64,000 nucleotides of DNA from Turneriella sp. Its GTDB lineage: Bacteria > Spirochaetota > Leptospiria > Turneriellales > Turneriellaceae. A program made the position numbers and the translations under genes. Under the pieces are notes generated by a model. That model had not been told where the DNA came from, did no database searches, and saw only the letters and a program-made list of their open reading frames with translations. Positions 947 through 63,821 of this stretch are shown in pieces. The DNA lies in assembly GCA_965279515.1 (NCBI GenBank), contig CBDIID010000003.1, positions 4,256,001 to 4,320,000 on the forward strand, in the 5' to 3' direction. How positions within the stretch are numbered: the first letter of the stretch is position 1; every line of letters begins with the position of its first letter.

Positions 947-3136
947 CTACTTTTCCGTTAACACTTCAAAGCCGCGCCAGTCGGCCGGTGGGAATTTCAG
1001 GTGCCTTTCGATGCGCTCAAGGTAGAGTTTGAGCGTCTTGTCGGCGGTATTCTCTGCCGCCATTTGCAGGAAGGCCGTCTTGGCATCGCTGAACTTGCCT
1101 TCCTGGTAGAGTGCCAGGGCTTTGGTAAAATCGGCGGCCTGTCTTTGTTTCATGCGCTTCTTCTCATCGCTATCGCTGTTGAAGACCTCGATGAGTCCGA
1201 CCGGTTCGTTCTTGCCTTTGACCGCTACACGATCGACGAGCCGGTAGAGGTACTTTTCTTTCTGCTGAATGTCGTTCCACGAGACGTCGGAGATCAGCGT
1301 ACCCGCACCATAATTTTTCGTGAGGCTTTCAATGCGCGAAGCGAGGTTGACGGCATCGGCGATGACTGTACCGTCCATTCTCTGGTGCTCGCCGATCGTA
1401 CCCAGCATCACGCGGCCGTGGTGCACGCCGATGCCGATTGCAACGGGGAGGAAATTATGCTTCGCGCGGCGGTTATTCCAGTCAAAAACACGTTCATGCA
1501 TCGAGAGCGCCGCCTCAAGGGCATCGGTTGCTGCACCGCTCCGCGGCAAAGAGGGCATCCTGCCCGCCGCGGAGTCAGGGCCTCCGTGCCCTCCAGGAAA
1601 TAGCGCCATCACGGCATCACCGATATACTTGTCGATAAAGCCGTGGTGGTCGCGTATGACCGGACCGACCTTGTCGAGGTATGAATTAATAAAGTCAAAA
1701 TTTTCCTTGGGTGTCATCTTCTCTGACAGCGAGGTGAATCCGCGGATATCTGAAAAGAGCACCGCCATATCGCGCTGTACCTGGTCGCCGAGGTTGACGT
1801 CGAGAATGCTCTTCTTATCGAGCATGGTGAGGAATTCAAACGGCACAAAGCGCCGCGAAGCCGCATTAAATTTAGAAAGGCTTTCGTTTAATGCCTCGGT
1901 TTCATCATGGAGACGTACGAATCGGTTGGCCAGCACGAGCGCCATTGATATTATAAAGAAGATAAAAACATAGGTCAATAGCGGTGGCAGGTTGATTTTC
2001 GCCTGCCCGCTGAGAATATCGAGAATCATCGCTGCCAGCAGAACGACGAAGCTGACAATCATGATGATTGCATCGCGGTTTTTTCGTGCCACTTCGCGGA
2101 ACAGTATGAAAGCAATGCCGATAATGTAAAAGAACCAGATATACGTAACGACATTGTTCTGCAGGAAATCCCAGGTTTTGACATCCGGAGAAAACACCAC
2201 CGCCGCGGCCACGCCTGTGATAATAACATTGGCACCAATCACCGAATAGTCCCAGATCTTCACCCAGCCCGTAACAGGCCACTTGTAATAATGCCGGATA
2301 AAATAATAGAACGAAGGTACTAGCGTGAAGAGCGACAGGTACTGGATGCGTTTCCAGAAATACAGATTTAACCCGTATTGGTATTTAAGCTGCGTGTGCA
2401 GCGCACTGTAGACGACCAGTGCCAGGGCAAACAGCGCAAAATAAAAATTTTCGCGATCATGGCGGCGGCGGATAAAAAACAGGAAAAAATAAAGCCCGAA
2501 GGTCAGGTAACAGACGAGGGCAAGCGAACTCCATAGATTTTGCAGGTAGAACTCACGGTACATAAGCGCTGCCGGCCCGATTTCGGTGCGATCGCGGTAG
2601 ATGCCCAGTTCTTTTTCCAGCACACCCTGAACCTCGACGGCAATCTCGTTGACCCCGGCCTTGAGCGCACCCGCAGGGATCGAGTAGAGCCGCGTCTTAT
2701 CATAGGCCTGCGGTTCGGGCCGGCCCATCTCACCGGTTTCGCCGATCAGCACGCCGTTGAGGTAGGTGCGGTCGCGGTCGTTGATTTCACCCAGGCGGAT
2801 TGCGTACGCCTCGGTGGGTATTTTTTCCAAACGAAAGCGCATGCGGTAGTGGGCGATGCCCAGGCCGCTCATTCCGAGCTGGGGAGCCAGATTCTCCGGG
2901 GTTTTGACGATTTTATAGCCTGCGAATTCATCTTCTGCGACTTTTATTTTTCTGACGAGATTGCCTGCGCTGGGCTGGAATGAAGCGTTTTTTGCATACC
3001 AGATAAAACCGTCCGCCGACGAAAATCCTGCGACTTTTCCCGGCTGAATCTCTTTCGGCACGTTCTCTTCGAGGGCCGCAAGACTACCGCCGCCTGCCAG
3101 AGAGAAGAGGAGCAGAAAGCGCAGTTGTTGTTTCAT
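947..3136 (-). CDS. Membrane adenylate/guanylate cyclase (sugar-binding-like periplasmic domain, 7TM region, class III cyclase domain)
   Basis: FSDIRGFT, IDKYIGDAVMA and DAVNLASRIE motifs; about 7 TM segments; LGEINDRDRTYLNG jelly-roll motif. Confidence 0.9.
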   Translation of the reverse strand: MKQQLRFLLLFSLAGGGSLAALEENVPKEIQPGKVAGFSSADGFIWYAKNASFQPSAGNLVRKIKVAEDEFAGYKIVKTPENLAPQLGMSGLGIAHYRMRFRLEKIPTEAYAIRLGEINDRDRTYLNGVLIGETGEMGRPEPQAYDKTRLYSIPAGALKAGVNEIAVEVQGVLEKELGIYRDRTEIGPAALMYREFYLQNLWSSLALVCYLTFGLYFFLFFIRRRHDRENFYFALFALALVVYSALHTQLKYQYGLNLYFWKRIQYLSLFTLVPSFYYFIRHYYKWPVTGWVKIWDYSVIGANVIITGVAAAVVFSPDVKTWDFLQNNVVTYIWFFYIIGIAFILFREVARKNRDAIIMIVSFVVLLAAMILDILSGQAKINLPPLLTYVFIFFIISMALVLANRFVRLHDETEALNESLSKFNAASRRFVPFEFLTMLDKKSILDVNLGDQVQRDMAVLFSDIRGFTSLSEKMTPKENFDFINSYLDKVGPVIRDHHGFIDKYIGDAVMALFPGGHGGPDSAAGRMPSLPRSGAATDALEAALSMHERVFDWNNRRAKHNFLPVAIGIGVHHGRVMLGTIGEHQRMDGTVIADAVNLASRIESLTKNYGAGTLISDVSWNDIQQKEKYLYRLVDRVAVKGKNEPVGLIEVFNSDSDEKKRMKQRQAADFTKALALYQEGKFSDAKTAFLQMAAENTADKTLKLYLERIERHLKFPPADWRGFEVLTEK
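1539..1592 (-). repeat. Two-hairpin GGA-loop element, copy A (in-frame within the cyclase)
   Basis: Minus strand agggc-acggag-gccct followed by ctccgcggc[gggc-aggat-gccc]tcttt gccgcggag. Confidence 0.75.
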
Positions 3137-3999
3137 TTTTTCGCCCCCATCTGTGTGATATAGGCGCCGATAACGTCGCTGATTTTATCATCCGGAGTAT
3201 GTACATTCATCACCATATCCGAATGGTCTGTTTCTTTAATCCATTCAACCCGGATCTGGCGCAGGCCCGCAGCAGCGGATTTCTCAGCTAATTTTTTGCC
3301 CTGTTCAATGAGGTAGTTATAATCTTTTTCACCGAAAAGAATCAGCGCGGCCGTGGCATCGCGCGAAGCGTAGGTTGCCGGAGAATATTTCGCATCTTCG
3401 GCGCCTTCACCGAAGAACGGCACGGTCAGTTCTTTATTAAAATCAGCTTCTTTATGCTGGCGCATATGTGCGATATCGAGAATCGGCGAAAGCGCTATAA
3501 CTCCGCGGACATCCGCATTTTTTTTCTGCCACGCGGCCAGGAGTGCAAGGTGCCCCCCGGCTGAATGGCCCACCAGGTAAACCTGCGCCGGATCGATGGC
3601 AAACTTATCTGCTCTTTTTTTCAGGTATTGCACAGCGTTCGCGATATCGTTCAGTTGGTCTTCGACTTTCGCGCGCGGAAAAAGGGGGTAGTCGATAACT
3701 GCTGTCGCGATACCGCGGCTCGCGAGTGCGAGGCCGAAATTCTGGTAGAGGCCGGTAAATGCCTGGTGGTAACTGCGCGTCTGGTTGCGCCAGTAGCCGC
3801 CATGGATAAAAATGACCGCCGGTACTTTGCCGGCGGCTGTTTTCGGCGTATAAAGATCGAAACCCGCGTCCTTGTCTGCCGTATCTGAATAATTCAGGTC
3901 GTCGTGGAATGCGACTTTTTCTTCAACCTTCGCTCGTGCACGCAGATGGCAGCCGCTAAGCGCCGCCAGAATCGCCGCAATCGTCATAAAACGTATCAT
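3133..3999 (-). CDS. Alpha/beta hydrolase (HSL/arylformamidase-like) lipoprotein
   Basis: HGGYW oxyanion motif, GHSAG nucleophile elbow, LSGC lipobox. Confidence 0.85.
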   Translation of the reverse strand: MIRFMTIAAILAALSGCHLRARAKVEEKVAFHDDLNYSDTADKDAGFDLYTPKTAAGKVPAVIFIHGGYWRNQTRSYHQAFTGLYQNFGLALASRGIATAVIDYPLFPRAKVEDQLNDIANAVQYLKKRADKFAIDPAQVYLVGHSAGGHLALLAAWQKKNADVRGVIALSPILDIAHMRQHKEADFNKELTVPFFGEGAEDAKYSPATYASRDATAALILFGEKDYNYLIEQGKKLAEKSAAAGLRQIRVEWIKETDHSDMVMNVHTPDDKISDVIGAYITQMGAKK

Positions 4000-5297
4000 C
4001 GTATTAACCCCGGATTTTCAAGATATTGCGCGAGCGTTGCGAGAAATTTTGCACCAACGGCGCCGTCGACGATGCGGTGATCGCAGGCGAGGTTTAAGGC
4101 CATAAATTCCCCGAATAAAACTTCGCCATTTTTGCCCTCGTAAGGCCGCCGTTCGCTGGTACCGACGGCGAGAATACACGCCTCGGGCGCATTGATGATG
4201 GCCTGGAACGAAGTGACGCCGAGCATGCCGAGGTTTGAGATCGTAAAGCCTGCGCCGGTGTACTCATCGGGTTTAAGGCGTCGTGCCCGGGCGCGTGCGC
4301 CGAGCTCTTGCGCGGCTGCAGCGATCTGGAAGAGGCTGTACTGATCGGCGTTGCGGATGACCGGCGTGATGAGCCCGTCTTCGATGCTCACAGCGAAGCC
4401 GACGTCGACGTTGCCGAGTTGCACGATGTGGCCATTACCGAATTGACGGAGAACTTCCGGATGGCGCACAAGACTCTGTGCGACCGCCGCGATAATGAAA
4501 TCATTCACCGAGACTTTTTTCGGTAGGTGGGCGTTTTCGGGATTTTCCTGTGCTTGCAGCGTCGCAAGGCCTTTGTTTGTCTCTTCGCGCAATTTCACGA
4601 GGCTCGTCACATTGATGCTGCGCGAGAGGTAGAAGTGCGGTACATTTTGTTTGGCATACGTCAGGCGCTCGGCAATGGTCTGGCGCATCGGCGAGAGCGG
4701 TAGTGTTGTGTCGGGTATGCGCTGACCATGCGCGGCGTGGATCACAATAGAGCCTGCTGTTGTACCGGCGCGGGCCGGCAGTTGCGCGCCTGCCGAAAGA
4801 TCGCGGCTGACGATGCGGCCACCGGGTCCCGTACCCTGAATCGTTTTGAGGTCGATGCCATTTTGCCCGGCGATTTTTTTAGCCAGCGGCGAGCCCTTGA
4901 TGCGGCCCGACACTTGCCCCTGATTTAAATCAGGGGCGAGCGAAGGTTTTGCTGGCGCGGCCTGAGTCGCGCTACCGGTGGTTTGGCTGGTTTGCCCCCG
5001 ATCTGAAGCCGGCTTAGCTTCGGTTTTAATCCCACTCAGCAGGCTGTCGAAATTCTCACCTGGCTCGCCGACGACGGCGATGGGGGCGCCGACCGGAAGT
5101 TTGTCGCCCTTGTTTGCGAGAAGTTTTAATACGACACCACCGTCGTAGGCTTCGAGGTCCATGACCGCCTTGTCGGTCTCAATGGCTGCAAGCACATCGC
5201 CGGGCTTTACCCTGTCGCCTTCTTTTTTCAGCCATTCGACGAAGACGCCTTCCTTCATGGTGGGCGAGAGCTGTGTGATTGTTATTAGTTTAGCCAT
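3996..5297 (-). CDS. pdhC: Pyruvate dehydrogenase E2, dihydrolipoamide acetyltransferase
   Basis: Lipoyl domain IETDKA, E3-binding SPLAKKIA...GTGPGGRI, catalytic DHRIVDG. Confidence 0.9.
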   Translation of the reverse strand: MAKLITITQLSPTMKEGVFVEWLKKEGDRVKPGDVLAAIETDKAVMDLEAYDGGVVLKLLANKGDKLPVGAPIAVVGEPGENFDSLLSGIKTEAKPASDRGQTSQTTGSATQAAPAKPSLAPDLNQGQVSGRIKGSPLAKKIAGQNGIDLKTIQGTGPGGRIVSRDLSAGAQLPARAGTTAGSIVIHAAHGQRIPDTTLPLSPMRQTIAERLTYAKQNVPHFYLSRSINVTSLVKLREETNKGLATLQAQENPENAHLPKKVSVNDFIIAAVAQSLVRHPEVLRQFGNGHIVQLGNVDVGFAVSIEDGLITPVIRNADQYSLFQIAAAAQELGARARARRLKPDEYTGAGFTISNLGMLGVTSFQAIINAPEACILAVGTSERRPYEGKNGEVLFGEFMALNLACDHRIVDGAVGAKFLATLAQYLENPGLIR

Positions 5298-5393
5298 ATC
5301 AGCATTGTGTTAAATGAACTCTGTCACGTCAAACAATCGGGCGTGCCGGTGCACCAACGGTACGACCGGATGTTGAGGTTGGATTAACTTTTT

Positions 5394-5672
5394 TTAAGGG
5401 ACGGTCGTCCAGGACGCCACACCGGCGGTCGGCGAGTAGAGAAAGCCGCTGAAACTGCCGCCCGAAAGGGCACTCTGCAGAAAACCCTTGTCATTGCCAC
5501 AGACGGTGGGATAGACAATTATTGCCATCAACCTTTTTAATGACTGCCTTTAATTTGCCCGATTTGTCCGTCGCAGAGTTGGATCTACATTGTTGCCAGC
5601 GCAATTGGTGGCGCATACGCTGAAATACAGGGCAAGCGAAACTAAACGGCAAAAGAAGTTTTTGTCACGCAT
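5394..5672 (-). pseudogene. Possible remnant of a small lipoprotein gene with two frameshifts
   Basis: MRDKNFFCRLVSLALYFSVCATNCAGNNVDP, then NSATDKSGKLKAVIKKVDGN and IVYPTVCGNDKGFLQSALSGGSFSGFLYSPTAGVASWTTVP* in successive frames. Confidence 0.35.
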
Positions 5673-5785
5673 CGGTTACCAGATCGGTGCTTTCAAATGG
5701 CTGTGGCGCAGCAGCCTGTAAAGGGATATTGTTTTGTAGGCAGTTTTTATCTGTACAATCCGTTCGGCCGCGTATCGCTGGAAGC

Positions 5786-6547
5786 ATGCATATATTTCTG
5801 ACGGGCGCATCGACCGGTATTGGCAACGCCATCGCCAGGGAACTCGATACACATTTCAAGGGCGAAGCATTTTTCTCTCTGGCCTCGCGTAAAAAAGAAT
5901 TGCTCGGCGATTTGGCAAAAACACTGAAAAGTAAATCCGCCGTCTACGCTGCGGACCTGTCAGAACCGGCCGTTGCAGAAATGACGCTCGAGCGTGCCGT
6001 GAAAGAAAACGGCCCGATCGACATTCTCATCAACAACGCGGGCATGCAGAACATCGACCACTTTACTTCCATCAAAAACGAAGATGCCGAGAAACTTTTG
6101 AAACTCAATTACACCACGCCGGCACGGCTCATGCGCAAGGTGTTACCGTCGATGGCCGAGCGCAATTCCGGAACGATTATCAATATCGCGAGTTTAGGCG
6201 GAATCACACCGACGCCGTATATGGCAGAGTACTGTGCCTCGAAAGCCGCCCTGGCGTCGCTGGCGATTGCGCTTTCAGGGGAATACAAAGATACCAAATT
6301 GCATTTTCTTACCGTCTATCCAGGCCCCGTCGAGACGCCGATGTCAAACTATGCCGGCGATCGTTATGAAAAAGATGCCATGAGCCGTGTGCCCTTCGGT
6401 ACGGCGGCCGGCCTTGCGAAGGAAATCCGCATAGCTATGGAAAAACGCAACCACAAGGTTGTCTATCCGGCTGTCTACAAGACGGCTGAAATGTTCCGGG
6501 ATTTTTCTATCTGGGTGACTGCCCAGATGGCCCCTAAACCAAGGTAA
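5786..6547 (+). CDS. Short-chain dehydrogenase/reductase (SDR)
   Basis: TGASTGIG, NNAG and YCASK motifs; start moved to ATG 5786. Confidence 0.9.
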   Translation: MHIFLTGASTGIGNAIARELDTHFKGEAFFSLASRKKELLGDLAKTLKSKSAVYAADLSEPAVAEMTLERAVKENGPIDILINNAGMQNIDHFTSIKNEDAEKLLKLNYTTPARLMRKVLPSMAERNSGTIINIASLGGITPTPYMAEYCASKAALASLAIALSGEYKDTKLHFLTVYPGPVETPMSNYAGDRYEKDAMSRVPFGTAAGLAKEIRIAMEKRNHKVVYPAVYKTAEMFRDFSIWVTAQMAPKPR

Positions 6548-6556
6548 CGGCGCAGA

Positions 6557-6579
6557 CCTGCGGTGAGCTTGTCGAACCG
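6557..6579. repeat. 23-bp REP-like mini-element cctgcggtgagcttgtcgaaccg
   Basis: cggt/accg stem around GAGCTTGTCGA; interrupts a duplicated copy of the SDR 3' end. Confidence 0.55.
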
Positions 6580-6602
6580 TGGCACCTAAACCACGCTAGT
6601 GG

Positions 6603-53489: not shown

Positions 53490-55033
53490 TAGACTGCCAC
53501 CCCGACTTTTTCTGCGCTCGCGACGCGTGAAAAGATTTTTGCAATCGATTCAAGGCCTTGTACCGGTTTCAGGACCGGGGTAGTCTTTTTCACCTCGCCT
53601 GTTTTGTCGCGGAAAGAACCGGCTTTTTCAGGAAAGGCCAGTACGGGTGCCGTGATGGCGGCAAGTTCAGCAGCCGTATTCGCATGCGTCGTGAAGAGCG
53701 CGACCTTGTTCCATGCCGTCGCGGCATTGATGGCGTCAAAGAGTGCGGTATCTTCAACCTGCTCGGGTATACTGAGCCCCGCAACATGTGCGTGTTTTTC
53801 ACCGGTCTGGTAAGCAAACGGCGCAGAAAGCTCGTTGAGAATAATAACAAGGTCCGCGGTGCGGATGGCCCCTGCAAGAGATGCAAAATCGTTAAATGCC
53901 GTTTTGCTCCAATCGCGCAAATATTTGGCGTTCGGCCGCAAGTCGCGGCTCAGCAGGAAATCCCACTGCCCATTTTCTGTGCCATGGAAGGCATCTTTAT
54001 CAGAACGGAAATCCCAGTCGACGGTTTTTCCCTGCGCTTGCCAAGCACCGACGATCTGCGAGAAGGCATCGATTTCTTCGCACGCTTCGCTTGCGCCGCC
54101 GATGACGAGAATTTTTTTTGCCGCATCGATTTTTTGGGCTAACGCGGGGAGTGCGGTCTTCGACGTCGCTTTCTCGCCGTTGAGGACATAATGGTTGAGA
54201 CGATTTGCGGAAAAATCTTTGCCGCTGAAACGACCAAAATCACAGATGAAGTGGCCATCGGCCATCGGATTCTGCGGCGGCATGTAGCGGTAAAGCGCAT
54301 TGTTTTTGACGTTGGTCGTCACCTTGCAGAGCGTCGAGCAGCCGTGGCAGATCGACTCATGCGATTCATACCACCAGACGCGCGACTGGAAGAGTGTGTT
54401 TTCGTTCAGCAGTGCGCCCACCGGGCAGATGTCGGCGAGTGCGCCCTGGTAGTTGTGATTGAGGTAAGTCGATTTTTCGCCTGAAGTTTCGGGCGGAGTG
54501 TAGGCGATGATGGTGTCGTTGCCGCGCGCGAGCATCTCGAGATCGGGCACGCCGACGATTTCTTTGTCGAAACGCACACAGCGGTAGCAGAGAATGCAGC
54601 GGTTGTGGTTGATTAAGAGATTGGTGCCAATCTTCTCTTGCGGAATATTTCTTTTTATTTCTTTGTAACGTGTGGTGTCGTGGCCCAGCGCGAAGGAATA
54701 ATTCTGCAGGCGGCACTCGCCGGCCTTGTCGCAGACGGGGCAGTCGAGCGGGTGGTTGATGAGCAGAAACTCCATCACACCTTCACGCGCCTTGACGATC
54801 TTCTCGCCGAAGGCGTTGATCTTCATGCCGTCTTTGATCGGCGTATTACACGCCGCCTGGAACTTCGGCACGCCTTCGATTTCGATGAGGCAGATGCGGC
54901 ACATGCCGACGACGGACAATTTGGAGTGATAACAGAAGTGGGGGATCTCCACACCTTTGTCGTGGAGGGCATCGATCAGGTTCTTCTTCTCGTCGACCTC
55001 GTGTTCGGTCCCGTCGACGAAGATCTTGGCCAT
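53489..55033 (-). CDS. nuoG: NADH-quinone oxidoreductase subunit G (short form)
   Basis: [29 protein letters not shown] and [11 protein letters not shown]. Confidence 0.92.
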
Positions 55034-55110
55034 GGGCGTATTTCGAGGGTTAAATCAGGGTGTCTATTTCTTGTTCAATTGCAGAAAATCAGGGGGGCTA
55101 AAAAACATAA

Positions 55111-55180
55111 AAACCACGGCGGTCAGGAAGGGCACGGCGGGGAATCCCCAATCGCCGTGTTCGCCGTACCGCCGTGGTTT
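55111..55180. repeat. Nested long palindrome upstream of nuoG
   Basis: 13-bp outer stem aaaccacggcggt/accgccgtggttt with inner cacggcg/cgccgtg and gggg/cccc stems. Confidence 0.7.
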
Positions 55181-55194
55181 CTTCCAGGTCTCGG

Positions 55195-55605
55195 TTATTT
55201 CTCTTTGCGGACGCGCTTCTCGGGCAGGGCTGCTTTGCAGGTGTCGCTGACCTTGTCGCGGTTTTGCATCAGGCACTTCAGGCCTGCATGTTTTTTGGCA
55301 CCGGCAGCGTTGGCGTCGGGGCAGAGTTTCTGGATGTCTGGAGCACAGGTTTCGAGCGCTTTGGACATTTTCGCCTTGCGGTCTGCGTGTTTGGCCTTGT
55401 GTTCTTCTTTTTTAGCCTTGCATTCAGCAGAGAATTTGTCTTTATTCTCTTTAATACAGGCTTTCATCGCCTTGCGGTCGTTTTTTTTGTCGCCGCAGAA
55501 TTTTTCAATGTCGGCCTTACAGGGGCCGTTTTTGCGCCCTTTATTGGCTAAGATTGGCAGGGTGGTAAAGGAAAATAGTGTAATTGTGATGAGTATTTTT
55601 CGCAT
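55195..55605 (-). CDS. Secreted cysteine-rich repeat protein (two Cys_rich_FGFR/GLG1-like repeats)
   Basis: Signal peptide; C..DIEKFC...CIKENKDKFSAEC and C..DIQKLC...CLMQNRDKVSDTC. Confidence 0.75.
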   Translation of the reverse strand: MRKILITITLFSFTTLPILANKGRKNGPCKADIEKFCGDKKNDRKAMKACIKENKDKFSAECKAKKEEHKAKHADRKAKMSKALETCAPDIQKLCPDANAAGAKKHAGLKCLMQNRDKVSDTCKAALPEKRVRKEK

Positions 55606-56306
55606 ATATGTTTTTTTGTCTCCCATGGCCTTATGACGGCCTATGTAATAAAGAACGGACATGCAAAAATCATAAAAGATCTCTACCGATAGCTATAGTG
55701 TGTGTGTTTCCCGTGATATCCTGTCACGAAGTTTCAGGTTCATTGGTTTTTGGCAACACAGCGCACCTTCACTTTACTGCCGTTGCCCCCGCTATTCGCT
55801 TTACTACCGTTTGTATATACCTGGCCTTGGTTGCTAAAATCGACCAAGAGCGCATAGTTTTGCCCGCAAAACGAAGGAGAATCGGACGACGACCAAAAAA
55901 CTTCATCCGTATATTTCTGGCCGTTTACGCCGGGGGGGGGATTGCCAGACGTACTCGGAAAGTATTCTGTATTAACGGAAGCTAGTTCGTCGATCTCTAC
56001 AATACTTACAAGTTCATCAATTGAGGGAAGCCTCCAGCTAATACCTGCTAATTTGAGTTCTGAGCAGTACTTTGAAGCAGAATACCAATTGGTGCTGGTG
56101 CCATTGCCCTCGCAAAAGCGTTCATTCCGTTGCCCGTATGCGCATTTTTGCCATTTTAAATTGGTCTTTTTATCTGTGATTGTTCCGTCTCCGTTATCAA
56201 CATAGCGTTTCGCCATCTTGCGGGTCGGTGAGCTCGATAAATTGCCGCACTGAGGTACTTGGAATTCATAATGTTTGCTGCTCGCACAGGCCGTCACAAA
56301 TCCTAG

Positions 56307-57547
56307 CAGGGTGTTGAAAAACGCATAGAATCGGGTATCCGTTCAAACCATAAATACGATTGGACGGGCACGTATTTTGCGCCTTGCCACCTTCGCTTCT
56401 GGGCGCAACGGGCTCATAGCTTGCCAGCCAAAATAACCAGATTGGCTGCCGCCATCGTGAATATGAAATGAAAGCCAACCTTAGCTTTGCCGCAGTAGCG
56501 TGTTTTACGGATACCACCGATGGTTTTGCCCCAGCCAAATAATTCTTCAATCCGTTTGCGAACGCGTTGGCTGATTGCATAGCCGGTACTTCGCGCCGTT
56601 CGGCGATCAAGGCCTGGTGTTTTTCGTGTTTCAATCATGGCGATGTGCGGTTTTATCTTCAATGACCTGAGCGATGCTACCATGTCTTTCGTATGGTAGC
56701 CTTTGTCTGCACCCAATGTTCGCGGCTTGATTTTGCGCTTGCGGAGATTCTTTAATAGAGCAAGCAAGCCACGGCGTTCTGCTTTGCCATCAGCAGCCTC
56801 CAGGTTTGCCGCAACACAAAGACCGGTACGATTTTCCATGACGACATTACCGCAGTAAGACAGCTTTGCTTCTTTGCCGGGGCCCTTGCGTGCAAGCATG
56901 GATTCGGGATCAGTAGTACTGGCATGTGTTTCATTGCTGCGTTTTTCATCGTGAAAATTCACGATCGGATTGCGACTGGTGTCTATTGGCTTTTCGCGTT
57001 TTACGTCTGCATCTTTTTGTTTCGGCTTAAAGCTTTTAAGCGATGCCCATGCTTCGATCAATGTGCCGTCAGCGGTGAAGTGTTCATCAGAGACCAGATT
57101 CTTGCTTTGCGCAAAACGAACGACCTGCGCCAGAAAGCTATTTGCGATTTCCTGATTGAGGAGGCGTTCGCGGTTTTTGGCAAAAGTACTGTGATTCGGA
57201 ACAGGATCATTCGGCATCAGATCAAGAAACCAGCGGAAGAGAAAATTGTAGCTGAGTTGTTCACAAAGCTGGCGCTCCGAACGAATCGAATAAAAAGCGA
57301 TCAGAAGCGATGCCTTCAGCAAAAACTCCGGCGGTATCGAGGGTCTGCCAGCATCGGCGTACATCTTATCAAGTGCTCCATCCAGTTTGCCGAGCACGTC
57401 ATCGGCCATAGTCTTGATTTTACGCAATGGATGCGACGGCGGAATCAGATCTTCCGCAGAGAAATTGTAGAGAAAATTCATCTGAGCTTTTTGGTCACCG
57501 CGCATTGGCTCAATATAATCAAAATTAAGGACTTCTTCAACACCCTG
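56307..57547 (-). mobile_element. IS5-family insertion sequence, 1241 bp
   Basis: Terminal IRs cagggtgttgaa(a/g)aa; CTAG duplicated at 56303-56306 and 57548-57551. Confidence 0.92.
56414..57505 (-). CDS. IS5-family DDE transposase
   Basis: GRPSIPPE, SIRSERQL, FTADGTLIEAWAS, GADKGY and RKRIEELFGW. Confidence 0.93.
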   Translation of the reverse strand: MRGDQKAQMNFLYNFSAEDLIPPSHPLRKIKTMADDVLGKLDGALDKMYADAGRPSIPPEFLLKASLLIAFYSIRSERQLCEQLSYNFLFRWFLDLMPNDPVPNHSTFAKNRERLLNQEIANSFLAQVVRFAQSKNLVSDEHFTADGTLIEAWASLKSFKPKQKDADVKREKPIDTSRNPIVNFHDEKRSNETHASTTDPESMLARKGPGKEAKLSYCGNVVMENRTGLCVAANLEAADGKAERRGLLALLKNLRKRKIKPRTLGADKGYHTKDMVASLRSLKIKPHIAMIETRKTPGLDRRTARSTGYAISQRVRKRIEELFGWGKTIGGIRKTRYCGKAKVGFHFIFTMAAANLVILAGKL

Positions 57548-57898: not shown

Positions 57899-58710
57899 TT
57901 GAAAACTGACAACGTTGTGTTACGATCTCTACCTTTGGTTTTCATAGGATTCTTAACGGGCTGTCAGAACGTACCGATAATCGGTCAGAATAGTGATTAT
58001 GAAATTGTGTATCTCGCCGTTGGAGGTGTGCTGTCGAACAATGATGATGGTGCGGCCATTTCAGGTGCCGAAATTACCATTTCACCGAGTGACATCTCTA
58101 TTATTAAATCGGGTACAGCCAAGAACCTTGTGCTGCAAGACCATAATGGCTCTGTGGGTGCGAATTCCGTAAATTTATCGGATGTTACTAGATTAGTTAC
58201 AGATTCTACCGGGAAATTTTTGGGATCTATTCCTTTGCCGGTAAAGAAGCTGAAAGATGGAACTGGGTACGAAGTAACTCTGAAAGTAAAGGCCCTGAAG
58301 GGCCGATAGCCGGCCCGGTCTACGCTTATGCTGGCATACAACAATCTTTCACCATCAAAAAAAGCAATGGGAGTGAAAAACCTTTATTTAATTTTGCCGG
58401 CTACAGCGTCTCTCTTCAGGGATCTGCAAGTTTTGATTTTGGCGTTGGTGCTTTTGGCTTGGATATATCAGCGAAAAATTGGATTAAGAATACTGTGGAT
58501 AATATAGCCTCGCGGATTTCTTTACCACTATGCCCAAATACCCTTTATTACTGTGTTGGAGCTTCAGGTCAGCAGGTATCTTTGAAGAAAATTTGTGATG
58601 GTAACCCATATGATTGCTCTAATAACGAGGATGAAACAGCACCGGTATTTGGTGGATGTCAGAATTTCTGTTCTACCCAATCGCAGTTGTATCGTCATTG
58701 TTGTGAATGA
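57899..58710 (+). pseudogene. Frameshifted lipoprotein with C-terminal LDL-receptor class A-like module
   Basis: LTGC lipobox; frame 1 stops at 58309 while the -1 frame is open 58192-58710 and ends CPNTLYYC...CDGNPYDCSNNEDE...C. Confidence 0.6.
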
Positions 58711-59393
58711 TAGGTTTTGGCAAGCGACGACCGCTATATTAAAGTTGGAAAAGTTGGAGATAATTTTGTCGCGATTCCTTATTGGCAGCATAATATTTTT
58801 TATTACAAATTTTGCTTGGGGAAAATCTGTTGTTGCTGATCGATCGAAGCTAAATACTGATAGTATCAGGAATAATCAGCTGATACTTCGTTTCGAATAC
58901 TTGCCTTTAAGCTTTTCCCGCAGTCATCAGACGCTTACGATTGATAACAAAGTATATCCGAATGATACAGCGGCATTATTAGGCGGAAGTATTGAGTATC
59001 GCCGGCTTAACTTTTTTCAGCAAAATCTTTTTTTGTTTGATCGCTTTCAGCATTTAGCGGGGAGTAAGGCGTTTACGGTTGAAGGTGAAACGGAAAAAGC
59101 TGAATTGAAAGGGTCTTTGGGCATTTTTTTTGGTTGGTGTAGGTCTTGTGTTTCCGTTGAAAACGCGTTATTTATCTCTCCTCATGTAGGAATAGGAGGC
59201 CATTTTGCAAGTATGGCTTTATCACACCCGACCCAAGTCCTCTACAAACAGACGATGCAAAGGTACGGTGGGAGCATCTTTTTGGGTGTGAATTTGGGCG
59301 TGGGCTTATCTAATAATCTCGTTATAGAGATGCGTCTTGGTGTAACAAACCTTTTGTATTCTGGCTATTTCGGCAGTCTGTTATGCTTTTTAG
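58707..59393 (+). pseudogene. Putative outer-membrane beta-barrel protein with a 3' frameshift (start uncertain)
   Basis: Signal-like FLIGSIIFFITNFAWG, beta-strand pattern; an alternative frame gives Y-A-F-stop ending at 59393, abutting the lexA-like stop. Confidence 0.5.
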
Positions 59394-59996
59394 TTAAATC
59401 CGGCCAACCACTGCCTGTGCCAAACCCTCAACACGAAAACTTTCGGGGTCTGCCGCAAACGGCTCGTAACGGCTGTTTAAAGAATAAAGGAGGATCTTTT
59501 TCCCGGAGCGGACCATCCGCTTGATATAGGCCTTACCGCCGTCGGCGCAGGCGATAATACTGCCGTCCGGCGCCTCGACCGCTCTCTCGAACAGCACCAG
59601 ATCTCCGTCGAGAATACGCGGTTCCATCGAGTCGCCATGCGCCCTGACAAAGAACGGATTTTGCAGGTTTACGCCGAGAAACTGCGGTGGCAGCTCGAGG
59701 CGCTCTTCGACGTCGCCCGAGAGAATCGTGCCCTCGGGGCCGCAGCGCGCGAGGCCATAGAGGTTCACGAGAAACAAGCCCGACTCTTCGGGCGGTTGGC
59801 GCACGCGGTAGTCGGCGGGGTTCATGGGATTGCGCTCGATCATGCCTTTCTTCTCTAACTGCTGTAAATGGAAGAACACGAGGCTCGGAGTCGAGAGGTT
59901 GAGATCGTCTTGCAACTCACGGATTGTGTAGCCCTCGCCAGCGAGGCGGGTGAGCCGCGTGAGCAATTTTTTTTGTGTCGGATGTAGCTTTTTCAT
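59394..59996 (-). CDS. LexA-family repressor (winged HTH plus S24 peptidase)
   Basis: TIRELQDDLNLSTPSLVFFHLQQLEKKGMIER; ARCG cleavage loop; GDSM Ser; YIKR Lys. Confidence 0.88.
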   Translation of the reverse strand: MKKLHPTQKKLLTRLTRLAGEGYTIRELQDDLNLSTPSLVFFHLQQLEKKGMIERNPMNPADYRVRQPPEESGLFLVNLYGLARCGPEGTILSGDVEERLELPPQFLGVNLQNPFFVRAHGDSMEPRILDGDLVLFERAVEAPDGSIIACADGGKAYIKRMVRSGKKILLYSLNSRYEPFAADPESFRVEGLAQAVVGRI

Positions 59997-60021
59997 AGTG
60001 TTTCGCCGTTTTTTAATTTTG

Positions 60022-60067
60022 TAGAACAAAAATAGAACATTTTAGTTGCCGTTTTATTCTTGTTCTA
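60022..60067. promoter_or_regulatory. Candidate LexA operators in the divergent promoter
   Basis: taGAACaaaaataGAACa (GAAC-N7-GAAC, 60024-60038) and GTTTtattcttGTTCta (60051-60065). Confidence 0.6.
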
Positions 60068-60099
60068 TATATTGGCTGTAAAGCAAAAAAGGGGTATTT

Positions 60100-60834
60100 A
60101 TGTGGCACACGAAAACAGATTTTAACGAAGGGGTAAATCCCTCAGCGGAGCTCACCCTCGGCAATGCCTATAAACTGTGGAACTACCGCAGCCACGAGCG
60201 TTCGATCGCCTATATGACCGGTACCTCGGCGATTTTTCCGCTCGCGCAGGTCTGGCAGACCCGCATGGCCATCGAGGGCATCAAAACGCATACTATAGAC
60301 TGTGCGATCCGCTTCAATACCTATGCGATCGCCGAAGAGGCCTTGCGCCTCGAGATTCCGCCTGAATCGATCCACGACCAGATCACCGTTACCCGCGCAT
60401 TCACACCATACCAGATTCTCGACGCAGTGCAAGAGTTGAAAAAAAATGAAGTCGTCTTCATTCTTGCGCCTGCGAAACAGTTTTTTGACGGCGATGTCGC
60501 CTTCGATGAGGGGCTGTTTTTAATCCAGAAGCTGGTGCGGTTTTTGGCCGATGCGCATGAACGCGGGGTGGCGCTCTTCGTCGTAGAGAAGCCGTCATAC
60601 GCCGCCCCCGCGTTCAGCACATTTCTTTCCGACATTCGCCCGATCACCGACAAAAGCCGGTGGGAACTCTACCGGCTCGGCATGGATAATGCCTACCGGT
60701 TAAAGTACATCACCAACGGCAAGCTCCACAGAGATATTCTGAGCCTGCCGCAGCCCAAGGCCGACGAACGACCACGGGGGGGATCACTCAAAGCGCAAAA
60801 TTTTTCATCACAAATGCAGTTTGCTTTCACTTAA
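60100..60834 (+). CDS. Inactive RadA/RecA-like protein (iRadA-like)
   Basis: IDCAIRFNTY and ITVTRAFTPYQI RadA-type core; no GKT Walker A. Confidence 0.75.
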   Translation: MWHTKTDFNEGVNPSAELTLGNAYKLWNYRSHERSIAYMTGTSAIFPLAQVWQTRMAIEGIKTHTIDCAIRFNTYAIAEEALRLEIPPESIHDQITVTRAFTPYQILDAVQELKKNEVVFILAPAKQFFDGDVAFDEGLFLIQKLVRFLADAHERGVALFVVEKPSYAAPAFSTFLSDIRPITDKSRWELYRLGMDNAYRLKYITNGKLHRDILSLPQPKADERPRGGSLKAQNFSSQMQFAFT

Positions 60835-60843
60835 GGAGGATCT

Positions 60844-61041
60844 ATGAAAAAGAAGAACCATCTCATCCGCAGCGAGTCCGCAGAAAAGCTGCACTCGAGG
60901 CTGCTCAGGCTCTCCCTGTGGGATTCCCTGAACAGTAAGCGCAAAGAGCCGATGTCCTTTGCCTTCAAGATCACGCCGACGAGCGTGCTCAACCGTGTGC
61001 TGGCAGTTGAATATATGTCGCGCCACCGCGAAGACAACTAA
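60844..61041 (+). CDS. Small hypothetical protein (65 aa)
   Basis: Strong aaggagga RBS; TAATG coupling to the next gene. Confidence 0.6.
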   Translation: MKKKNHLIRSESAEKLHSRLLRLSLWDSLNSKRKEPMSFAFKITPTSVLNRVLAVEYMSRHREDN

Positions 61042-61316
61042 TGGGCCGCACCGTCAGCGCCTATTCGATGGTGATCGATAAGGTCATTAGTCGTTTCGAC
61101 AGCTACCGCCGCACGTTGCGCCGCGAAGACCGCGAGGCCTTCGACGATCTCATGCGTATCGCGCGCATGCAGGTGCAGGCGGGCGTGATGGCGCAGCATC
61201 CCAATGCCTTCGATTCGATGAGCATGGCGATGCTGATTCACCTGCAGCGCGAAATTACCGAGCTAAAAAAAGAAAGAAATTTCAAGGGAGAACTTTATGG
61301 GGAAAAGACAGCTTAA
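61041..61316 (+). CDS. PolB2-associated small helical protein (PPB2/arCOG07300-like)
   Basis: MGRTV...YRRTLRREDREAFDDL...A...P..F pattern; adjacent to PolB2. Confidence 0.75.
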   Translation: MGRTVSAYSMVIDKVISRFDSYRRTLRREDREAFDDLMRIARMQVQAGVMAQHPNAFDSMSMAMLIHLQREITELKKERNFKGELYGEKTA

Positions 61317-61410
61317 ACTCAAGACGAGTAAATCACAGTCGATCGCCACGGCGTTGCACGTGAGCGTTCCGCTGCTTGTTTATTGGTTGATTTTGCTTTT
61401 AGATAAATAG
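61297..61410 (+). CDS. 37-aa micro-ORF, basic N-terminus with hydrophobic C-terminus
   Basis: MGKRQLKLKTSKSQSIATALHVSVPLLVYWLILLLDK; agggag RBS at 61285-61290. Confidence 0.4.
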   Translation: MGKRQLKLKTSKSQSIATALHVSVPLLVYWLILLLDK

Positions 61411-61418
61411 GGAAAAAT

Positions 61419-61481
61419 ATGAAGAAAGAACAATATTCAATCGACCCCGATCACGACGACGATATACCGTTGGCTGCTTAG
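61419..61481 (+). CDS. 20-aa micro-ORF ending in LAA
   Basis: MKKEQYSIDPDHDDDIPLAA; aggga upstream; in frame with the polymerase. Confidence 0.3.
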   Translation: MKKEQYSIDPDHDDDIPLAA

Positions 61482-61490
61482 ACTTCGTAA

Positions 61491-63821
61491 ATGCCACAAC
61501 CAACGGCCCTCAGGGGAGACTGGAGCTTCGAGGGCTTTCTGTTCGATATCTATAATGTCGGTAACCAGATCTATATCTGGGCGATCGATGATGAGAAGCG
61601 GCTGTTTTTAGCCGTTGACGAGTATTTTCCCGTGATCTATGCGCACGGGAATGCCAATGTCCTCTATACGCTTTCCGAGCATATGCAAAAGACCGGTGCA
61701 GTCACCGGAGTGCCGCGGTTTGAGAAGAAGATTCTTTTCTATCCCAACCGCATCGTCGATGCCCTGCGTCTCGAGATCGCGCATCCGTCGCTTTTGCCCA
61801 ATATCCGCCGCAAGCTGTTCACGCTCTACCACAAGTTTGATATCTATCACTCCGATCTCGATCCGGTTACGGGTTATATGTCTGACCGCGAGCTCTATCC
61901 CCTGGCGCCGTTACGCATACAGACAAGAATTGTGGGGCCTGCTAACCGTGTTGTGCGCATCGAAGCCACGCAGCGCTCGACCGATTTTGAGTATCGTTTT
62001 CCCGATCTGCGTATTTTGCAGATGGCTTTGAAACACAGCCACCGGTTAGGCATTGGGGCACATAATCCACTATTGCTCGAAATTGCCGGCCGTAAATACA
62101 CGATCGCCGAACAAAACCACGAAGACTATATCCATAAGATCAACCAGATTATGCGCGATGAAAACCCCGATTGCATTCTGTCTTCGTTCGGTGACCAGAT
62201 TATTTTTCCATTCTTGTTTGCCGCGGCGCAGGAATCAGGATTAAAACTCGAGCTCGACCGCGATCTGACATCTTCCATTACCCGCAGTATTAAAAGAAAG
62301 GGGGCGAGCTTCAATACCTATGGCAGCTGGATCTTCCGCGCCGCTTCGTATCCGCTCTATGGCCGCTGGCATATCGATCAGCAGAACTCCTTCACCTTCA
62401 AACATACCGACCTGCATGGCACGATTGAGCTTGCGCGCATCAGCCGCATGCATGTACAGCGCGTCGCGCGCGCGTCGACGGGTAATGCGCTCACCGAAAT
62501 GGAAGCCGATGTCGCGATCCGTAAGGGGTACCTCGTGCCTTGGCAAAAAAGTGCGCTTGAGAACCGCAAGACCTGGTATGAGCTGCAGCTTTTCGACAAG
62601 GGGGGGCTGGTCTATCAACCCGATATCGATAAAGGCATTGTGCGCCACAACGTCGCGCAGCTCGATTTTTCCCAGATGTACCCGAGCATCATGCATATCC
62701 ACAATATCTCCCCTGAGACGGTGAATTGCCCCTGCTGCGCAGCTGAGCAGGATATCCCCCGAGTTCCCGAGATCGGTTACCATATCTGCACCAAACGCCG
62801 GGGCGTGGTTTCTGACGCGCTGGAGCATATACTTGCGCGGCGGAAATATTATAAAGAACAGCTTACCCGAAAAGACATGAATACAGAACAGCGGAAGATT
62901 TATGAGCAGCGCGTCGACAGCCTGAAATGGATGAATGTCGTCAGCTTCGGCTACCTGGGATTTCGCAACGCGAAATTCGGAAAACTCGAAAGCCATGAGA
63001 GTGTGACGGCTTTCGGGCGCGATAAACTTCTGACAGCAGTGCAGCTGGCAGAAGAGCAGGGCTTTGAACTCGTCCATGCAATCACCGACTGTATCTTTAT
63101 TCAGAAAAAAGACGAAACTGCGTTTATTGAAGGCGAGCTTGAGAAACTCTGCGCCGACATTCTGCGGGAGACCCGGGTCGAGATGAGCTGCGAGGGCATC
63201 TATTCCTGGGCATTGTTTTTACCTTCGCGCAACGATGATAAACTTCCCGTAGCGAACCGTTATCTGGGGCGCTTTACGACGGGCAAACTCAAGATGCGTG
63301 GCGTGGTCGTGCGCCGCAAAGATACTCCCGGGTATATCGGCCGGTTCCAGCGGGACATTATTGCCTTACTGCAGACCTGTGTGAATGCCCGCGCTGTCGC
63401 GGGCCTCTATGAAACGGCACATACGATTTATCAGAACCGGCTCGAGGCACTCGAAGCCGGAAACGTACCCTGGTCAGAGCTTTTACTGCGCCGCACGGTC
63501 AGCCATGAACTCGAGGAATACAGCGTCATGAACGGCACATCGCTCAGCATGCGTGAACTGAAAGAACTGGGGCTCACTGTATCACCGGGAGAGAAGGTGA
63601 GGTATATCGTCGTTGAACAGAAACACTACTCTCAAAGGGGGCGTTATATGTCCGAAGAAAAAGCGGCAATGCTGGGGCGTGATTACCTGCCCTATGACAA
63701 AAAGTTTTACGCAAAGCAGCTCTACGAGGCCTTTGCCGAAATTTTTGATCCCTTTATCTCTGCCAAAATTGAATCTCCTGCCGGGCAGATGCAGCCCGAG
63801 ATGTTCCGGCGGCCTGCCTGA
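61491..63821 (+). CDS. Family B DNA polymerase, PolB2 (Dpo2-like) subgroup
   Basis: DKGGLVYQP, LDFSQMYPSIM.HNISPET, LKWMNVVSFGYLG, HAITDC and KMRGVVVRRKDTP. Confidence 0.9.
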   Translation: MPQPTALRGDWSFEGFLFDIYNVGNQIYIWAIDDEKRLFLAVDEYFPVIYAHGNANVLYTLSEHMQKTGAVTGVPRFEKKILFYPNRIVDALRLEIAHPSLLPNIRRKLFTLYHKFDIYHSDLDPVTGYMSDRELYPLAPLRIQTRIVGPANRVVRIEATQRSTDFEYRFPDLRILQMALKHSHRLGIGAHNPLLLEIAGRKYTIAEQNHEDYIHKINQIMRDENPDCILSSFGDQIIFPFLFAAAQESGLKLELDRDLTSSITRSIKRKGASFNTYGSWIFRAASYPLYGRWHIDQQNSFTFKHTDLHGTIELARISRMHVQRVARASTGNALTEMEADVAIRKGYLVPWQKSALENRKTWYELQLFDKGGLVYQPDIDKGIVRHNVAQLDFSQMYPSIMHIHNISPETVNCPCCAAEQDIPRVPEIGYHICTKRRGVVSDALEHILARRKYYKEQLTRKDMNTEQRKIYEQRVDSLKWMNVVSFGYLGFRNAKFGKLESHESVTAFGRDKLLTAVQLAEEQGFELVHAITDCIFIQKKDETAFIEGELEKLCADILRETRVEMSCEGIYSWALFLPSRNDDKLPVANRYLGRFTTGKLKMRGVVVRRKDTPGYIGRFQRDIIALLQTCVNARAVAGLYETAHTIYQNRLEALEAGNVPWSELLLRRTVSHELEEYSVMNGTSLSMRELKELGLTVSPGEKVRYIVVEQKHYSQRGRYMSEEKAAMLGRDYLPYDKKFYAKQLYEAFAEIFDPFISAKIESPAGQMQPEMFRRPA

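Follow-up and report, generated by a model that had tools for sequence, protein, structure and literature searches.

A predicted SOS-regulated PolB2 operon with two additional small genes in a Turneriella-like spirochaete

Introduction

Makarova, Krupovic, and Koonin (2014; PMC4104785) described the genes for the family B DNA polymerase PolB2, an inactivated RadA protein, and the small protein arCOG07300 as linked, also in several bacteria, with lexA sometimes in the same predicted bacterial operon. Timinskas, Timinskas, and Venclovas (2025; PMC11791011) named the two partners of PolB2 iRadA and PPB2. Here we analyze a locus of this kind in a stretch of 64,000 nucleotides from Turneriella sp. 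(contig CBDIID010000003.1, positions 4,256,001 to 4,320,000). We call the full stretch the window and give the features of the operon in window coordinates. The genome has 4.9 Mb. For comparisons within the family we used 20 genomes: the source genome and 19 others.

PMC11791011 gives the bacterial gene order as always iRadA-PPB2-PolB2, sometimes interspersed with other genes, in neighborhoods enriched in lexA, SRAP, and DUF72. It models a PolB2-iRadA-(PPB2)3 pentamer held by an MGRT arm and a D(K/R) motif. It places beta-clamp motifs mostly in iRadA and rates their presence in iRadA and PolB2 together as rare. In a 2026 survey, bacterial G2/PolB2 counts as an established group. Knowledge of bacterial PolB2 mutasomes comes only from comparative genomics and structure prediction, and our search of the literature on PolB2 found no experimental paper on one.

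In our reading, to which we give a probability of about 0.82, the locus is a PolB2 'mutasome' operon of the bacterial branch that lies on the chromosome of a Turneriella-like spirochaete and is regulated by the SOS response. An earlier annotation of the window (the original prediction) had offered it as a candidate bacterial SOS mutasome, a self-contained B-family equivalent of imuABC. Its novelty was overstated: the trio, its fixed order, the lexA linkage, and the modeled heteropentamer in bacteria are already published (PMC4104785, PMC11791011). All that is new here are two additional small genes and a damage switch that can be read from the DNA; otherwise the locus is an ordinary example of a published system. 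Even the extra genes may already be listed in the supplementary tables of PMC11791011.

Results

Composition and distribution of the operon

A lexA gene on the minus strand is divergent from iRadA, p65, PPB2, m37, m20, and PolB2 on the plus strand (Table 1). The order iRadA, PPB2, PolB2 is thus kept on one strand in close packing, with p65 and two micro-open reading frames (micro-ORFs) in between. The original prediction had described a LexA-like repressor gene divergent from a packed operon, and every ORF of its inventory is present in its place.

PolB2 occurs in 16 of the 19 other genomes of the family, in operons of two types. Type A is found in the source genome and nine others of the genus. 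In these nine, PolB2 is 65-75% identical to the one in the window, lexA is divergent from iRadA-p65-PPB2-geneX-PolB2, and the full arrangement is repeated in all nine. Adjacent, divergent lexA is seen in eight of these nine genomes, and contig ends intervene in the ninth; the linkage that the original prediction proposed to survey is therefore kept in relatives. In type B, PolB2 is 41-46% identical to that of the window and the operon consists only of iRadA-PPB2-PolB2. Among named genomes the nearest loci belong to Turneriella, Leptospiraceae, and other metagenome-assembled genomes of Spirochaetota, followed by Leptospira species and Chloroflexi.

One closed genome of the genus has both types, about 45 kb apart (contig 1: 508306-512673 and 555577-559426). 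In three type-B genomes of the genus a different repressor gene is divergent from the operon, encoding a helix-turn-helix and an S24 domain in 211-230 amino acids (aa). A SRAP gene follows this repressor in both loci examined (5060-6598 of one locus, 3708-5201 of the other). In a fourth type-B genome the S24 gene is on another contig. The type-B repressor is a second, different pairing of an autocleavable repressor with the same polymerase system.

The polymerase

Pfam assigns the polymerase to DNA_pol_B (E = 5.8e-34). Two NCBIfam models for 'type B DNA-directed DNA polymerase' match it at 4.1e-101 and 5e-96, both below cut-off, and the Pol II equivalog NF004421 reaches 2.1e-06 and 26.4 bits (cut-off 570). 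Its best matches in the PDB are archaeal PolBs (5mdn, 2e-36), and E. coli Pol II is not among the best 60 of 69 matches. A quick maximum-likelihood tree of 30 polymerases unites the 27 PolB2 rows from spirochaetes, Chloroflexi, and haloarchaea with 100% support in the Shimodaira-Hasegawa-like approximate likelihood ratio test (SH-aLRT). Outside this group stand E. coli Pol II, a halovirus PolB, and a nanoarchaeal PolB of unassigned type; the named references come from plasmid, phage, and E. coli records. The best 120 of 1288 matches in a protein search are spirochaete polymerases only. A tblastn search against plasmids found haloarchaeal 'type B DNA-directed DNA polymerase' genes that are 26-31% identical to the query over as much as 98% of its length (E 1e-64 to 1e-72).

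The aspartate of motif A (D392), the lysine of motif B (K479), and the second aspartate of motif C (D533) are kept in 22 of 22 aligned rows. Motif C reads I531-T-D533 where the aligned 5mdn has DTD; its first aspartate is replaced. Exonuclease motif I, from which we read the loss of the exonuclease, has A179 and K181 in place of aspartate and glutamate (compared with 5mdn and 22 relatives). The pair D256-R257, which we equated by position only with 253-DK-254 of S. islandicus, the motif of the loop that contacts PPB2, is DR in 20 of 22 rows and NR in two Chloroflexi rows. Close to the C-terminus, PolB2 of type A and type B alike has Qxx(L/M/I)F. In the window this is QPEMF (residues 768-772), and two relatives have QLSLF; PMC11791011 gives the clamp consensus as QLxLF.

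iRadA and PPB2

iRadA has no match in Pfam or NCBIfam, the ImuA model included. Its fold is recognizable from a predicted structure. The AlphaFold2 model has a mean predicted local distance difference test (pLDDT) score of 86.7, and in a Foldseek search against the PDB every listed row is RadA, Rad51, or DMC1 (E about 1e-9, probability 1.00, template modeling (TM) score 0.51-0.60 on the query). A profile of 40 homologues gave the same families in 19 of 23 weak PDB matches (best E 0.0082). The Walker A motif G-x4-GK[ST] is absent from all 40 aligned homologues, and an invariant LAPxKQFFDGDV signature stands at the Walker B position. iRadA is a RadA/Rad51 core without the N-terminal domain and without the ATPase motifs.

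Type-A iRadA carries a C-terminal extension of 30-50 residues ending in (S/A)QM(Q/E)Fx(F), in nine of nine type-A rows and in none of the 31 others. Here the tail is QMQFAF (residues 238-243). From their sequences, the C-terminal tails of iRadA and PolB2 both resemble beta-clamp binding motifs.

All 13 aligned PPB2 sequences, which come from spirochaetes and Chloroflexi, have the same first four residues, M1, G2, R3, and T4. A haloarchaeal (Halorientalis) plasmid has a 245-aa gene, then a PPB2 starting with MGRM, then PolB2.

Families, folds, motifs, and tree hence agree with what the original prediction had called an archaeal-type PolB2/iRadA/PPB2 trio beside lexA. Its RadA-like protein without Walker A has a RecA-type fold by Foldseek, and its PolB2-type polymerase groups with neither E. 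coli Pol II nor viral PolB in tree, NCBIfam, and PDB comparisons.

Table 1. Features of the lexA-PolB2 locus in window coordinates (aa, amino acids)
Feature	Position	Strand	Description
lexA	59394..59996	-	SOS repressor, 200 aa; the ORF listing extends to 60029
Regulatory core	60022..60083	.	Conserved divergent core of about 62 bp, common to lexA and the operon
SOS box 1	60022..60039	+	Candidate LexA operator; TAGAACAAAAATAGAACA, GAAC-N7-GAAC direct repeat
Operon promoter	60046..60073	+	Sigma-70-like; TTGCCG, 16-base spacer, TATATT
SOS box 2	60050..60067	-	Inverted copy of box 1 with 3 mismatches, in the promoter spacer
iRadA	60100..60834	+	244 aa; inactive RadA/Rad51 fold (predicted structure, Foldseek, motifs)
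p65	60844..61041	+	65-aa basic protein specific to type-A operons
PPB2	61041..61316	+	91 aa; predicted small helical partner with N-terminal MGRT arm
m37	61297..61410	+	37-aa micro-ORF; predicted gene X remnant
m20	61419..61481	+	20-aa micro-ORF; predicted remnant of the gene X C-terminus, ends PLAA
PolB2	61491..63821	+	776-aa family B polymerase

Control region and SOS regulon

The core between lexA and iRadA is nearly invariant in all nine loci with adjacent lexA, and the intergenic sequence flanking it is wholly different. Within the core lie two 18-bp boxes in inverted orientation, both of which fit GAAC-N7-GAA(C/A). Box 2 is kept in relatives as TATTCTTGTTCTA and fills the spacer between the -35 and -10 elements of the operon promoter. 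The promoter scan count for the region is not above that of shuffled sequences, and the promoter call therefore takes its weight from the position of the site inside the conserved core. Several relatives have differing G+C-rich palindromic inserts of 40-120 bp between the core and the iRadA start, and in one relative an insert of about 280 bp separates lexA from the core instead; the window has neither kind of insert.

Four exact copies of a 15-mer from the box were counted in the genome, each directly upstream of a gene. By our own estimate about 0.01 exact copies are expected by chance. Besides this locus, the sites precede recA (TIGR02012, 556 bits), a PA0069-type radical-SAM gene (494 bits), and a gene for an Xer/integron-integrase-like tyrosine recombinase that scores below all curated cut-offs. 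With up to one mismatch, the box stands beside lexA in ten of the ten lexA-bearing genomes of the genus, and it is found in none of the three genus genomes that have recA and a type-B operon without such a lexA. It lies upstream of the recombinase orthologue in seven relatives and of the radical-SAM orthologue in one. GAAC-N7-G(A/T)AC is found just 5' of the recA ribosome site in five of the ten lexA-bearing genomes and in none of the three without lexA. The candidate operator box is, in silico, common to lexA's own gene and recA.

Two of these sites can be described further. The recombinase gene (contig C3, position 2927201; 366 aa) has the exact box immediately 5' and looks LexA-controlled. 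The PA0069-family radical-SAM gene (C3, position 4249241, about 6.8 kb before the start of the window) has the exact box 5 bases 5' of its listed start, and the pair is repeated in the nearest relative.

The Caulobacter and alphaproteobacterial SOS box is GTTCN7GTTC (PMC9578287, Table 1). The box here is alike in its GTTC/GAAC direct repeat and 7-base spacing; it differs in being a predicted operator and in having a spirochaete host. It is unlike the boxes reported for Leptospira, which are CTnnACnnnnGTnnAG for LexA1 (earlier TTTGN5CAAA) and TTGTAN10TACAA for LexA2 (PMC3789691, PMC4756842). Neither CTnnACnnnnGTnnAG nor TTGTAN10TACAA was seen in the core on inspection by eye only. The older LexA1 motif TTTGN5CAAA has one copy in the intergenic region of the window (TTTGTAGAACAAA), and we rejected this copy as an operator candidate: relatives do not keep it. 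The genus is thus suggested to use a direct-repeat SOS box unlike that of Leptospira.

The LexA protein

Pfam finds both Peptidase_S24 (PF00717, 2.5e-20) and LexA_DNA_bind (PF01726, 2.8e-08) in the repressor. Solved LexA proteins match it along the full length, 8s7g best (4.5e-13), with the serine and lysine of the catalytic dyad aligned. A Cys-Gly pair stands opposite the Ala-Gly cleavage position of the solved repressors. We predict cleavage at Cys85-Gly86 and catalysis by Ser123 and Lys159, numbered on the 200-aa form. The true start of lexA is probably the ATG at 59996, the twelfth codon of the listed ORF, because relatives align only from that methionine.

No second winged-helix LexA was found in the genome, and the sole other S24 protein carries a phage-CI-type helix-turn-helix domain. 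Within the family, lexA at 84-93% identity coincides with type A: all ten type-A genomes have it, and it was not found in the ten others. Since these genomes are kin, the co-occurrence of lexA and type A does not amount to ten independent events.

Because the 15-mer also precedes recA and two further genes, and because the genome has no other winged-helix LexA, this LexA is, as predicted from its sites, the general SOS repressor of the organism, and the PolB2 operon is part of a small SOS regulon. LexA is expected to bind the boxes. SOS control of the operon is well supported in silico, and we predict that DNA damage induces it. Of the 16 listed sequencing runs that cover the stretch in full or in part, none is an RNA run.

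p65

The original prediction had counted p65 and the micro-ORFs as extra subunits. For p65, the gene itself stands. It is present in ten of ten type-A operons and nowhere else in the 20 genomes, and 14 homologous clusters, all 58-98% identical, were found among 5.8 billion proteins. The ratio of nonsynonymous to synonymous substitution (dN/dS) between the source genome and its nearest relative is 0.03 for p65 (where dS is near saturation), 0.04 for lexA, 0.09 for PPB2, 0.10 for PolB2, and 0.15 for iRadA. p65 is preceded by a 9-base gap holding a AAGGAGGA ribosome site, and its stop overlaps the PPB2 start (TAATG). p65 is a real, lineage-specific gene under strong purifying selection that is translationally coupled to its neighbors.

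Nothing shows that p65 is a subunit. It has no Pfam match at E<=0.01 (one chance-level match at E<=1), none in NCBIfam, and no usable match in the ESM Atlas. Its AlphaFold2 model (pLDDT 64.8) has two helices around a disordered loop with an invariant RKxPxSFA(F/L)K, and is too poor for a fold search. A co-fold of iRadA, three copies of PPB2, and p65 scored 0.00 in two runs, with no controls folded, and counts neither way. PPB2 duplicates without MGRT are described in PMC11791011; p65 as such a duplicate was rejected (hhalign of p65 with PPB2, probability 0.07%). hhalign detects no relation of gene X to PPB2 (0.57%) or to p65 (0.29%) either. We regard p65 as a lineage-specific accessory.

Gene X and the micro-ORFs

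In seven genomes a gene of 145-149 aa, which we call gene X, lies between PPB2 and PolB2. Six of the seven members match RHH_5 below threshold (best E 1.5e-4), and weak PDB matches to HP0222 and the Arc repressor fall on the same stretch. By language-model features gene X resembles spirochaete DUF1564 proteins (score 0.94), which is a lead only; our literature search for DUF1564 found no paper.

In the window and its nearest relative, gene X is reduced to m37 and m20. m37 aligns with the N-terminus of gene X and with residues of about 70-101, keeping the ribbon-helix-helix-like helix. In another genome gene X is a single 22-aa ORF in which the first 16 residues are joined directly to the last 6. 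All three states keep a start that overlaps PPB2 (the m37 start falls within the 3' end of PPB2) and a C-terminal P-(P/L)-(L)-A-A tail, written with varying synonymous codons. The stop of gene X or its remnant lies 3-34 bases 5' of the polB2 ATG (9 bases for m20), and no ribosome site is evident at that ATG. dN/dS is 0.35 for m37 (36 codons) and 0.20 for m20 (20 codons). Judged by these alignments, the micro-ORFs are remnants of a larger, ribbon-helix-helix-like gene that is dispensable in the lineage, and this part of the extra-subunit claim is overstated.

Our best guess is that translational coupling to polB2 explains why the remnants persist. This guess leaves the conservation of the gene X tail at the amino-acid level unexplained. 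The tail may resemble the LAA end of the ssrA tag.

A further reading, which we hold to be doubtful, is that the type-A operon encodes an expanded PolB2 mutasome, in which p65 is a fourth component and the gene X ORF sets the dosage of the polymerase by coupling or by a degron-like tail. The p65 loop RKxPxSFA(F/L)K resembles the iRadA tail QM(Q/E)FxF, and p65 occurs together with that tail and with lexA. Under such an expansion p65 could be an adaptor or competitor at the clamp or at the C-terminal extension of iRadA, and the ORF would be kept for its overlap with PPB2 and for the P-(P/L)-L-A-A tail and stop upstream of polB2.

Genomic context

Ordinary chromosomal genes (NuoG-like, ferredoxin, M23 peptidase, and beta-lactamase-family hydrolase) flank the operon, and the locus is chromosomal. 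The left flank is syntenic in four relatives. Because lexA there abuts the gene found at 55000-55550 of the window, the 3.8 kb at about 55.6-59.4 kb are an insertion specific to the source genome.

Within this segment are an Lcl_C-domain gene (55740-56297, minus strand), an IS5-type DDE transposase gene (56414-57505, minus strand), and a low-GC stretch (about 41% versus 52%) with a lipoprotein-like ORF of 136 aa. A 309-aa ORF without family match (58595-59524, plus strand) shares about 130 bases with the 3' end of lexA, which is on the opposite strand, and may be spurious or mis-started.

Four records of LE1-like Leptospira phages contain iRadA, an MGRTV-PPB2 not annotated as such, and PolB2 (in one record at 2749-5801). 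Such phages are a possible vehicle for the spread of the operon among Leptospirales.

Elsewhere in the assembly, contig C2 (19,790 bases) has an 18-base string at 1120, 7746, and 14372, exactly 6626 bases apart, and may consist of three assembled copies of one unit of about 6.6 kb.

Discussion

How the operon may work

In an undamaged cell, LexA dimers would occupy the two inverted GAAC-N7-GAA(C/A) boxes, one of them in the -35/-10 spacer, and keep both the operon and lexA off. Upon DNA damage, RecA filaments would trigger self-cleavage of LexA at Cys85-Gly86, and the operon would be transcribed. The tightly coupled ORFs would then be translated in series, and PolB2, iRadA, and a PPB2 trimer would assemble as in the model of Timinskas et al. 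(2025). Guided to the beta clamp by the C-terminal tails of iRadA and/or PolB2, the complex would extend DNA across lesions without proofreading. The micro-ORFs may now mainly hand ribosomes on to the polB2 start.

Weighing the reading and its rivals

Several observations weigh against an SOS-regulated PolB2 operon. A direct-repeat box is unusual for LexA outside Alphaproteobacteria. When one mismatch is allowed in the 20 genomes, the real pattern gives 25 matches and a reversed control 14. Single-mismatch matches elsewhere hence carry little meaning, and the weight rests only on exact and positionally conserved sites. recA is without an evident box in five of the ten lexA-bearing relatives, and the single Y-family polymerase gene of the genome has no box in its 250 upstream bases. 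The LexA itself has Cys-Gly in place of the Ala-Gly of E. coli and scores 92.9 bits with the NCBIfam equivalog TIGR00498 (cut-off 110.95), a model that is also below its own cut-off in three of the nine control genomes where it gives a match. Finally, the PolB tree is a quick search with long outgroup branches and without labeled PolB1 or PolB3.

The original prediction gave the operon its own repressor. In this form lexA would travel with the polymerase module and control mainly or only the operon, like the island-borne second LexA of Leptospira interrogans. The strict co-occurrence of lexA with type A is what one would expect of such a cassette, as is the single conserved control region that lexA and the operon have in common. 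The type-B operons of the genus have a divergent S24 repressor of their own, of another type, and the Cys-Gly site is also found in L. interrogans LexA2, which is reported to bind only its own promoter (PMC3789691, PMC4756842). However, the co-occurrence may reflect one subclade of kin, and the locus is chromosomal, with synteny of its left flank in four relatives. The recA, radical-SAM, and recombinase genes are likewise preceded by the exact box, in relatives too, and this is the only winged-helix LexA found in the genome. We therefore consider a private repressor unlikely and do not uphold that part of the prediction.

Even less probable, in our estimate, is a catalytically dead polymerase whose complex acts in replication restart or regulation, as was proposed for PolB2 in 2014. 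Makarova et al. took such proteins to be inactivated (PMC4104785), and the polymerase here does have a motif C without its first aspartate and a lost exonuclease motif I. Yet the motif A aspartate, the motif B lysine, and the second motif C aspartate are kept in every aligned row, and PMC11791011 reports that the S. islandicus PolB2, which has the same kind of substitution (IID), is required for targeted mutagenesis. We give very little credence to the idea that the cassette sits within an integrated element or phage-derived module and serves its replication. The LE1-like phage records encode the trio with a polymerase 43-45% identical to this one, and an IS5-family transposase and low-GC stretch lie 2-3.5 kb to the left of the operon. 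But that segment is an insertion specific to the source genome, the neighbors are housekeeping genes, the flanks examined hold no phage genes, and the operon is present in most genomes of the family. The SOS-regulated chromosomal operon thus remains our preferred reading.

The locus as an experimental system

The locus is a good experimental entry point: the genus has cultured members, and the DNA itself shows the promoter, the two operator boxes, and the small SOS regulon. The genus also offers natural variants that have or lack gene X, or lexA and p65, and one of its genomes contains both operon types. The remaining interest lies in the readable SOS switch, in a conserved small protein specific to the lineage, and in a shrinking gene before polB2.

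Comparison with known systems

The published bacterial PolB2 operon (PMC11791011) is matched here in gene order, in an inactive RadA without N-terminal domain or Walker A, and in a PPB2 with MGRT arm. The dead exonuclease, the xTD motif C, the D(K/R) motif, the neighboring lexA, and a C-terminal clamp-like motif are also alike. In contrast, the locus has p65 between iRadA and PPB2, gene X or its remnants between PPB2 and PolB2, and clamp-like motifs in both iRadA and PolB2.

PolB2 (Dpo2) of S. islandicus is likewise a damage-linked family B polymerase without proofreading, with the first motif C aspartate replaced and with iRadA and PPB2 encoded alongside. The archaeal system differs in having PCNA instead of the beta clamp and Orc1/Cdc6-type control instead of LexA (PMC11791011). 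Experimental data belong to the archaeal enzyme only.

ImuA-ImuB-DnaE2 follows the logic predicted for this locus, in which one operon under LexA encodes both an inactive RecA-like protein and an error-prone polymerase. However, the two systems use unrelated protein families, and the operon has neither DnaE2 nor ImuB. Since the genome has a single DnaE (one PF07733 match), it holds no ImuABC cassette. Like E. coli Pol V (UmuD'2C-RecA), the system would be a translesion polymerase of several subunits under SOS induction, with one component from the RecA family and a protein of the S24 family in its circuit. Yet the catalytic subunit of Pol V belongs to the Y family, and the S24 protein is here a repressor and not a subunit.

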